From Klebsiella phage vB_Kpn_K50_evo36, in sequence record PQ569677.1: a stretch of DNA of 48,996 nucleotides; one strand, written 5' to 3'. This document shows, in pieces, positions 44,515 through 44,560 of the stretch (position 1 is the first letter of the stretch; the number at the start of each line of letters is the position of its first letter). Below the pieces are notes generated by a model. That model was not told the DNA's origin, made no database searches, and saw only the letters and a program-made list of their open reading frames with translations. The position numbers and the translations under genes were made by a program.

Positions 44515-44560
44515 CACGAATTGCTAAAACAAACGAAAATATGGCCGCTATAATGGCCAT
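44510..44560 (+). promoter_or_regulatory. motif-type promoter (motif 44510-44530; ATGGCC-gctataat-GGCCAT hairpin)
   Basis: Perfect consensus copy; 22-nt spacing. Confidence 0.55.

Follow-up and report, generated by a model that had tools for sequence, protein, structure and literature searches.

Stem-loops selected on the sense strand within the repeated promoter cassettes of a T1-like Klebsiella phage

The genome of Klebsiella phage vB_Kpn_K50_evo36 (PQ569677.1), analyzed here as a single stretch of 48,996 bp (the window), is that of a T1-like siphovirus of the family Drexlerviridae, and it contains about 17 promoters that share a 21-nucleotide (nt) box, aaTAGCACnnnTTGCTAAAAc, located 20 nt upstream of an extended -10 element. 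In twelve of these promoters, the stretch from the box to the predicted start site folds into a stable hairpin, and it is these hairpins, first noticed as inverted repeats at the -10 hexamers in an earlier note on the sequence, that are analyzed in this work. The nearest GenBank relatives of the window are the Klebsiella phages RCIP0096 (91% identity over 72% of a 5-kb query) and P-K7R, behind which the same query ranks hundreds of weaker matches to Webervirus and Escherichia phages. Its largest open reading frames (ORFs) encode the tail-tip protein J (1470 amino acids, aa) and a tail fibre with an S74 chaperone domain (1314 aa), and other large ORFs code for a helicase, a DUF3987 protein, a primase-like protein and a Dam methylase, with lysis, Erf, SSB and exonuclease genes also present. 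No phage RNA polymerase gene was found in the window and no polymerase domain among 10 ORFs scanned, nor did the window yield any match to known RNA families in Rfam.

The motif AGCACnAATTGCTAAA has 22 matches in the window with up to three mismatches, against 2.1 expected, and scanning viral contigs with the exact motif provided 121 loci, on contigs of Drexlerviridae size, from which related promoters were gathered. The logo of 546 unique copies reads aaaTAGCACgaaTTGCTAAAAc-N16-tGnTATAAT-nnCCCCA-TCGAAAC, with conservation spanning from the box through the Shine-Dalgarno sequence and reaching 80% for the G at -14, 88% and 87% for the second (A) and sixth (T) positions of the hexamer, and 75% for the A located 7 nt downstream of it. 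The distance between box and hexamer is almost always 20 nt, and 69-74 nt separate the box from the downstream ATG in the two window copies for which this was counted. Within the box, the dyad TAGCA-N5-TGCTA is centered 30 nt upstream of the hexamer's first base, or around -42 from the predicted start, which, as a working analogy, would correspond to the geometry of a class II activator site replacing the -35 element. The TTGCTA of the box was ruled out as a -35 element because its spacer to the -10 would be 22 nt, and canonical sigma70 promoters are not enriched in the window (18 versus 22.7 expected). The box also tends to contain the stop codon of the upstream gene, either as the TAG of aaTAGCAC (-1), in 188 promoters, or as the TAA of GCTAAAA (+12), in 69.

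A repeat with these properties has been described in phage TLS, in which 18 intergenic copies of a 21-nt direct repeat, aaATAGCACnnnTTGnTAAAA, lie about 76 nt upstream of start codons, with similar repeats in T1, Rtp and Rogue1 (PMC11447400, 2024). The box of the window is the same as the TLS repeat in consensus, in orientation with respect to transcription, in position and in its A/T/G central-triplet subgroups. The TLS paper leaves the function of the repeat open, with a stoperator, an enhancer or an UP-element as ideas, and reports no RNA polymerase or sigma factor gene for the phage; as far as consulted, it mentions neither the fixed-distance extended -10 nor the hairpins reported here (PMC11447400). 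Literature searches on the box sequence, on Drexlerviridae transcriptomes and on promoter hairpins of T1-like phages returned nothing beyond that paper (PMC11447400), and the annotation of NJS1 was uninformative.

Sixteen box promoters of the window were folded as RNA, and 11 of them gave free energies between -10.7 and -23.8 kcal/mol, with z-scores relative to shuffled sequences between -1.9 and -8.5, while the box copies at 41060, 41715, 42388 and 34161 folded no better than shuffles. The features involved are listed in Table 1. All eleven inverted repeats reported in the earlier note were recovered, displaced by 1-2 nt at most, and the three copies in which it placed the hairpin directly upstream of the hexamer do show that arrangement (32522-32539, 33851-33871 and, on the minus strand, 39798-39815); a further box copy, with a hairpin at 2127-2148, was absent from its list. 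In the hairpin at 44540-44561 the predicted start, at about 44561, coincides with the final base of the 3' arm, and the hairpin at 45137-45159 is extended by an outer helix covering 45127-45168, with energies of -16.3 to -17.1 kcal/mol. Two copies, at 2127-2152 and 29470-29506, carry the U-tract characteristic of terminators. The former is located between the terminase large subunit and portal genes and retains a weak -10-like element (GACTAT) at the canonical spacing, across the junction of the 5' arm and the loop, and the latter separates the regulator-like ORF 29515-29964 from the primase-like gene 28541-29455.

Table 1. Boxes, hairpins and promoters of the window, with folding energies (dG, kcal/mol)
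Feature	Position	Strand	Remarks
Box aaTAGCACGAATTGCTAAA	44512-44528	+	Its TAG is the stop codon of the upstream ORF 44299-44514
Hairpin TATGGCC(G)/(U)GGCCATA around TATAAT (44549-44554)	44540-44561	+	dG -10.7
Gene served by the 44513 promoter, 92 aa	44591-44869	+	From the ORF list
Hairpin GGGGUUGC/GUGACCCC around TATAGT (44077-44082)	44067-44088	+	Box 44040-44056; dG -14.0
Hairpin AAGGCCAUUG/UAGUGGCCUU overlapping TATAGT (45148-45153)	45137-45159	+	10 bp, 2 G·U, 3-nt loop
12-bp hairpin GCAAGGCCAUUU/AAGUGGCCUUGU, loop GAUA, overlapping TAAAGT (45966-45971)	45952-45979	+	dG -23.8, z -8.5
Hairpin, core GGGGUAACU/AGUUACCCC, overlapping TATAGT (47210-47215)	47192-47226	+	Predicted start ~47222; dG -20.6
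Hairpin GCGUGGUGU/GCACCACGU, TATAAT (22962-22967) in loop	22953-22976	+	dG -15.3
Putative terminator and promoter composite: stem ATCGCGCG/CGCGCGAT, -10-like CATTAT (29488-29493) in loop, then TTTTTATT	29470-29506	-	
Hairpin UGGUUGGCCU/GGGCCAACCA around TATAAT (39110-39115)	39098-39124	-	dG -17.3
Spacer hairpin GCCGCA/UGCGGC, ending on first base of CATAAT (32539-32544)	32522-32539	+	dG -11.0
Spacer hairpin GGCGGGGCA/UGUCCCGCU, 2 G·U, ending at TATAAT (33871-33876)	33851-33871	+	dG -14.9
Spacer hairpin CCCCGGC-GAGA-GUUGGGG, GNRA tetraloop, 2 G·U, upstream of CATAAT (39792-39797)	39798-39815	-	dG -12.1
Terminator-like hairpin AAGGCUGGA/UCCAGCCUU and T-run	2127-2152	+	Box 2097-2113; dG -15.8
Promoter 29979	29979	+	First of block, divergent region; fold -10.8, not conserved in orthologues
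Promoter 42443	42443	-	First of block; no conserved hairpin
Promoter copy 34145	34145		Intragenic; no conserved hairpin
Promoter 41770	box 41755-41771	-	No hairpin; own terminator upstream (41817-41797)
Promoter 41115	41115	-	150 nt from nearest upstream ORF; no conserved hairpin

The excess of hairpins extends to the whole family of related promoters, which were counted as unique sequences or as one per orthologue cluster, with shuffle tests that ignore phylogeny. Of 473 unique promoters, 38.5% have the hexamer enclosed by a perfect stem of at least 6 bp, against 7.1 ± 1.0% in a control in which the 3' arms were exchanged among promoters and the position-specific composition was kept; for stems of at least 5 bp, the corresponding figures are 55.6% and 25.2 ± 1.8%. 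Likewise, Watson-Crick helices of at least 5 bp with at least three GC pairs, wherever located, are found in 73% of promoters and in 15-20% of column-shuffled sequences. It might still be argued that the inverted repeats arose by chance or simply follow from a spacer rich in G and a discriminator rich in C, given that the consensus G in the spacer (positions 26-29) and C behind the hexamer (positions 44-47) would by themselves produce some GGGG/CCCC pairing. However, the controls that preserve composition reach only 7% and 15-20% where 38.5% and 73% are observed, the stems of at least 6 bp comprise 73 distinct 5'-arm sequences, many of them not of the G/C-run type, and compensatory changes are seen in orthologues. 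The arm-exchange, column-shuffle and covariation controls hence refute this explanation, the probability of which we consider negligible.

The position of the stems is far more uniform than their sequence, as the earlier note had observed. In the modal geometry of the perfect stems, the 5' arm occupies the stretch from 12 to 7 nt before the hexamer and the 3' arm the 6 nt after it, leaving a 12-nt loop, and in 122 of 263 cases the 3' arm ends 6 nt after the hexamer, directly before the conserved A at the predicted +1. The note had also placed the hexamers in the hairpin loops. This needs correcting: once G·U pairs are admitted, the stems, of 8-12 bp, usually enter the 3' half of the hexamer and leave loops of 3-7 nt (3-16 nt in the family as a whole), so that the hexamer tends to extend from the loop into the 3' arm. 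Over the whole family, overlap of an arm with the hexamer is seen in 55% of promoters, a hexamer wholly within the loop in 9% and a hairpin wholly within the spacer in 21%, and 15% have no hairpin. The suggestion that the stems might constitute a repressor site was dropped as unlikely, because the arms have no sequence in common.

Evidence for selection on the structure comes from orthologous promoters, which were clustered by their downstream coding sequence and supplemented with loci fetched around two conserved genes. In orthologues of the hairpin at 44540-44561, TATGGCC/GGCCATA is replaced by TAGGGCC/GGCCCTA, a compensatory double change (cluster 34), and orthologues are also available for the hairpin at 47192-47226 (cluster 0). 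Upstream of the DUF3987 gene (39098-39124), orthologous stems read TGGTTGGCC/GGCCAACCA, TGGTTGACC/GGTCAACCA, GTTGCCC/GGGCAAC, TGTTGCCG/CGGCAACA and TTGGTTGCTC/GGGCAACCAA and include G·T intermediates, the pair at columns 19/33 being CG in five cases, AU in two, GU in two and GC in one. At the promoter of the primase-like gene, the stems are ATCGCGCG, ATCGCGTG, ATCGCGTA, GCCTGG(CA), CCTGGCA, GCCCACG and AAGGTTG. RNAalifold returned no consensus structure on a MAFFT alignment of these promoters because their stems and loops differ in register, and the stems were therefore compared by direct reading of the sequences. In 19 of 20 distinct orthologous sequences, a stem, drawn from six unrelated ones, precedes 5-7 consecutive T and encloses in its loop a -10-like hexamer with the canonical spacing to the box, so that these cassettes have the appearance of textbook intrinsic terminators with a nested promoter.

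A fixed 6-bp structure was also applied to 140 promoters, each standing for one orthologue cluster and aligned without gaps. In this alignment 50.8% of cells are paired, against 42.8 ± 1.2% after shuffling, and the covariation score is 0.254, against 0.163 ± 0.013; none of 500 shuffles reaches either value, and control structures slid along the alignment score at most 0.186. Covariation with retention of the stems is thus found across related phage promoters, as was to be expected if, as the earlier note had proposed, selection acts on structure rather than on sequence.

The nucleic acid on which this selection operates can be addressed through the asymmetry between strands. Over 448 promoters, the mean minimum free energy (MFE) of the RNA is -11.8 kcal/mol for the sense and -9.4 kcal/mol for the antisense strand (-5.3 and -5.8 for the respective shuffles), which puts the sense strand 2.5 kcal/mol lower, and the sense value is the lower one in 351 of these promoters. 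Since an A·C pair on the sense strand is a G·U pair on the antisense strand, the two types of mismatch provide a direct comparison: helices of at least 8 bp are found in 58% of promoters with G·T allowed and in 29% with A·C allowed, while composition-matched controls lean in the opposite direction (2-4% and 6-8%, respectively). Internal non-Watson-Crick pairs number 253 for G·T/T·G and 43 for A·C/C·A, versus 435 and 395 in controls, and among hairpins confined to the spacer the counts are 90 and 9. In addition, 33 of 64 tetraloops are of the GNRA type and 3 of the UNCG type, with antisense equivalents amounting to no TYNC and a single CGNA. The G·T excess, the GNRA and UUCG loops and the lower sense MFE therefore indicate that the structure is selected on the sense, or non-template, strand, and the selected molecule is most simply RNA rather than the non-template DNA.

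This asymmetry bears directly on the notion, advanced in the earlier note, of a cruciform or structure-dependent open complex. A cruciform requires the folding of both strands, and the best window copies are indeed perfect inverted repeats of 6-10 bp with an AT-rich center and no difference in folding between the two DNA strands (-5.9 to -9.7 kcal/mol), with arms that bracket the region melting at promoter opening. G·T is, moreover, the least destabilizing of DNA mismatches, GNRA-like loops are stable in DNA as well, and the selected non-template strand is the one that sigma70 reads. It might accordingly be supposed that a cruciform, or a non-template hairpin formed under negative supercoiling, modulates the promoter by presenting or occluding the -10, much as in a supercoil-sensing promoter. 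We nonetheless regard such a DNA-level structure as unlikely. The family-wide strand asymmetry (253 G·T against 43 A·C pairs, 36 of 64 favored tetraloops against one, and the difference in sense MFE) excludes a symmetric cruciform as the selected state, and the window spacer hairpins fold worse on the antisense DNA (-7.5 versus -5.6 kcal/mol, and -4.4 versus -2.9 kcal/mol at 39798-39815). Furthermore, the 21% of hairpins that lie entirely upstream of the hexamer leave it unexposed, the majority class has the 3' half of the hexamer paired, and the T-runs of some copies would have no purpose in DNA. The variant in which only the non-template strand folds, through negative supercoiling or the passage of an upstream polymerase, and thereby presents or hides a -10 that sigma70 reads single-stranded, is compatible with the G·T and GNRA strand bias, because DNA hairpins also tolerate both; we consider it very doubtful, but if true it would mean that a whole phage promoter family is gated by DNA structure.

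A further DNA-level proposal of the earlier note, a hairpin promoter of the N4 type, was abandoned on related grounds. N4 early promoters are recognized by a virion RNA polymerase of about 3,500 aa and consist of a template-strand hairpin, with a 5-7-bp stem and a 3-nt loop, that depends on supercoiling and SSB. Folded as DNA, the window copies have energies of -4.4 to -9.7 kcal/mol per strand, values that are neutral with regard to such extrusion. N4 promoters resemble the promoters analyzed here in having a short GC-rich inverted repeat with variable arm sequences, but the window encodes no such polymerase (its two longest ORFs are those of the tail-tip and tail-fibre proteins, the longer having 1470 aa), loops range from 3 to 16 nt, the selected strand is the non-template one and the -10 is of sigma70 type. 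Membership in the N4 class hence fails on polymerase, loop size and strand.

The hairpins are, on the other hand, tied to the gene that abuts the promoter on its upstream side. Promoters preceded by a long co-directional ORF have a mean MFE of -12.5 kcal/mol, versus -9.0 kcal/mol for the rest (p = 5e-8), a group that still includes promoters behind short genes. Twelve of the window promoters have a box that adjoins or includes the end of a co-directional ORF, and each of the twelve carries a hairpin of at most -10.7 kcal/mol; four of the other five have none and the fifth has a non-conserved one. Because the stop codon lies in the box, only the spacer and the discriminator are free between genes, and it is there that the arms lie.

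We propose, with a probability of roughly 0.6, that the hairpins are RNA stem-loops embedded in a repeated promoter cassette of about 75 nt and that they mark the end of the upstream transcript, which makes the alternative mentioned in the earlier note, RNA elements in read-through transcripts, the best-supported reading of those considered. The cassette comprises, in order, the upstream stop codon within the box, the box palindrome around -42, the 20-nt spacer, the extended -10 (tGnTATAAT), the C-rich discriminator, the A at +1, the conserved leader and the Shine-Dalgarno sequence, with the arms filling only those positions that the promoter itself leaves free, one arm in the spacer (about -24 to -19) and the other in the discriminator (-6 to -1), or else both in the spacer. 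A polymerase coming from an upstream promoter would transcribe both arms and thus place the hairpin at the 3' end of the upstream message, where it could act as a transcript-boundary element. The nested promoter, in turn, would start at the conserved A, at or after a 3' arm that ends around -1, so that its own RNA would lack the 5' arm and escape the hairpin. The effect on the RNA, be it termination or stabilization and processing, we infer to vary among copies: those with T-runs (2127-2152 and 29470-29506) would be true intrinsic terminators, and the others may attenuate read-through, block 3'-exonucleases and thereby stabilize the upstream mRNA, or both, in either case giving the upstream cistron a defined and protected end.

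Several observations weigh against this proposal, in addition to the equal folding of the perfect window repeats on both DNA strands and the tolerance of DNA for G·T pairs and GNRA-like loops already described. At least five T in the 8 nt following the hairpin are found in only 25 of 380 cases, the usual tail being AUCGAAAC, and most hairpins therefore appear not to be canonical intrinsic terminators. Fifteen percent of the promoters are hairpin-less, and at such promoters a separate upstream terminator is not enriched (2 of 52, versus 9 of 327). The divergent promoter at 29979 folds at -10.8 kcal/mol, albeit without conservation of this fold in its orthologues, and the related loci all matched the commonest box variant exactly and are mutually related.

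A sense-strand RNA signature would fit equally well if the 21-nt box were itself the promoter, read by a phage-directed or modified polymerase with a start just downstream of the box, and the hairpin a stabilizing stem-loop at the 5' end of the gene's own mRNA, a role in which stem-loops are well known. The box does resemble the -24/-12 element of sigma54 promoters (TGGCAC-N5-TTGC), in which GG is regarded as invariant, but it has AG in place of GG and a spacing that is 2 nt too short, and a sigma54 reading of the box was dropped on these grounds. More generally, the hexamer at a fixed distance of 20 nt, the G at -14 and the A 7 nt downstream make up an extended -10 sigma70 signature, T-run copies would terminate their own transcripts, and the absence or lack of conservation of hairpins at first-of-block promoters is not predicted. 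We hence judge the box to be highly improbable as a promoter in its own right, and retain the transcript-boundary stem-loop as the preferred explanation.

The closest known counterpart of the Drexlerviridae cassette is the PeSL cassette of T4-like phages, described in RB49/phi1, PST/T4 and nt-1/KVP40 (Arbiol et al. 2010, PMC2839356; Comeau et al. 2014, PMC4122927). Its stem-loop is situated between the -35 and -10 elements or overlaps the latter, contains G-T pairs and is often of the GGGG..CCCC type, and one such stem-loop lowered expression of a downstream lacZ about as much as rrnB T1 (PMC2839356). Both kinds of cassette combine a host-type -10 with a stem-loop that has G-T pairs and is placed most often between the upstream element and the -10 or over the -10. 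For each, a role of the stem-loop in halting or attenuating upstream transcription has been proposed, and both are enriched near small ORFs and, in the window possibly, at mosaic joints. They differ in that PeSLs have -35 and -10 hexamers 17 nt apart, whereas the promoters of the window lack a -35 and have the box at -51 to -31, and thus resemble the PmSL variant, in which a stem-loop is combined with a MotA-box, activator-type promoter (PMC4122927), rather than the near-consensus sigma70 PeSL. The cassettes described here, moreover, belong to a Drexlerviridae siphovirus and have a more regular 3' arm position (around -1) and few T-runs.

PeSL cassettes mediate modular shuffling, and recombination at the GGGG..CCCC stem-loop as its target was a speculation of the authors who described them (PMC2839356). 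By extension, the hairpins of the window could be part of a portable module rather than transcript elements, and the proteins of recombination or replication that shuffle cassettes might target them or pause there. Homology breakpoints between the window and related contigs do fall in cassettes in 23 of 166 cases, versus 4.4 expected, a 5-fold enrichment that was not separated from a general gene-boundary effect (the cassettes were scored at 2093-2178, 22922-23007, 29449-29534, 32498-32583, 33830-33915, 39071-39156, 39753-39838 and 44036-47254), and some orthologous genes carry different cassette types (clusters 0, 2 and 5), which suggests that the cassettes are mosaic or recombination joints, as proposed for PeSLs. 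Nevertheless, gene boundaries are mosaic joints in general, and the enrichment is hence not specific to hairpins; the homology of the 21-nt box and the leader would suffice for recombination, and such a module would not lead one to expect G·U pairs and GNRA loops confined to one strand, or hairpins that go with an abutting upstream gene. As an explanation of the hairpins, recombination thus seems quite unlikely, even if a recombination role could be additional to, rather than instead of, the role in RNA that we favor.

Boundary stem-loops in RNA can also be compared with host elements. Enterobacterial intrinsic (Rho-independent) terminators and intercistronic stabilizers of the REP (repetitive extragenic palindrome) type are GC-rich stem-loops located after a stop codon and often closed by GNRA or UUCG loops. 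The phage hairpins share the GC-richness, the loops and the location, with a minority followed by a T-run, but they mostly lack a U-tract and are nested in the promoter of the next gene, the transcripts of which would escape the hairpin. A simple terminator scan of the window left the nested sense-strand hairpins unflagged and showed no enrichment, with 25 terminator-like sites against 24.9 expected.

The 21-nt repeat of T1-like phages, the function of which was left open in the TLS paper (PMC11447400), is thus the upstream portion of a cassette, about 75 nt long, in which an extended -10 promoter is combined with a stem-loop selected for structure on the sense strand, and this provides a testable answer to that question. 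If the proposed explanation is correct, each small gene would be a semi-insulated transcription unit, with a boundary hairpin that is invisible to the transcripts of the next promoter. The PeSL design would likewise be extended from T4-like myoviruses to an unrelated family of siphoviruses, suggesting that promoter-embedded stem-loops are used convergently. In practice, the design is useful when therapy phages of Klebsiella and E. coli are annotated for promoters and terminators, and when compact, insulated expression cassettes are built.

Other features of the window touch on the same subjects. A candidate box-binding factor, to be taken only as a lead, is the 149-aa product of ORF 29515-29964, on the minus strand, which matches phrog_2856, 'transcriptional regulator' (E = 9e-74), with a helix-turn-helix at about residues 53-96. 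This ORF opens the minus-strand block, and the divergent intergenic region beside it holds a copy of the box (29976-29994) that can be read in both directions. A weak Sigma70_r4 match in ORF 34423-35544 was dropped as a regulator lead, the protein being a DNA repair exonuclease (phrog_704). Two further box copies, at 6688-6703 (minus strand) and 41100-41118, have a TTTTT/AAAAA center and, because of the dyad, match on both strands; the former sits between two plus-strand structural genes and yet reads best on the minus strand. A full box copy with a TAGTAT hexamer is also found at 34144-34186, inside ORF 34077-34325, and is kept in orthologues (cluster 14), usually without a hairpin; it may be either an internal promoter or a coding-constrained relic.

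A perfect 26-nt tandem duplication, ACCGTATGATGCGGAGGCGGAATACA twice, is found at 45235-45286, within a small ORF starting at the ATG at 45194. The length of the unit is not a multiple of three, and the duplication leaves this ORF with about 34 aa, where an unduplicated version would have 44 aa and end at a TGA overlapping the start region of the next gene. The 26-nt unit was present in none of the related loci fetched, and the duplication is either a recent mutation or else an assembly artefact. Finally, canonical intrinsic terminators are also predicted outside the cassettes, at 41797-41817 (minus strand), 35736-35761 (plus strand) and 36962-36983 (minus strand), the last two of which flank the lysis gene block (35843-36974).

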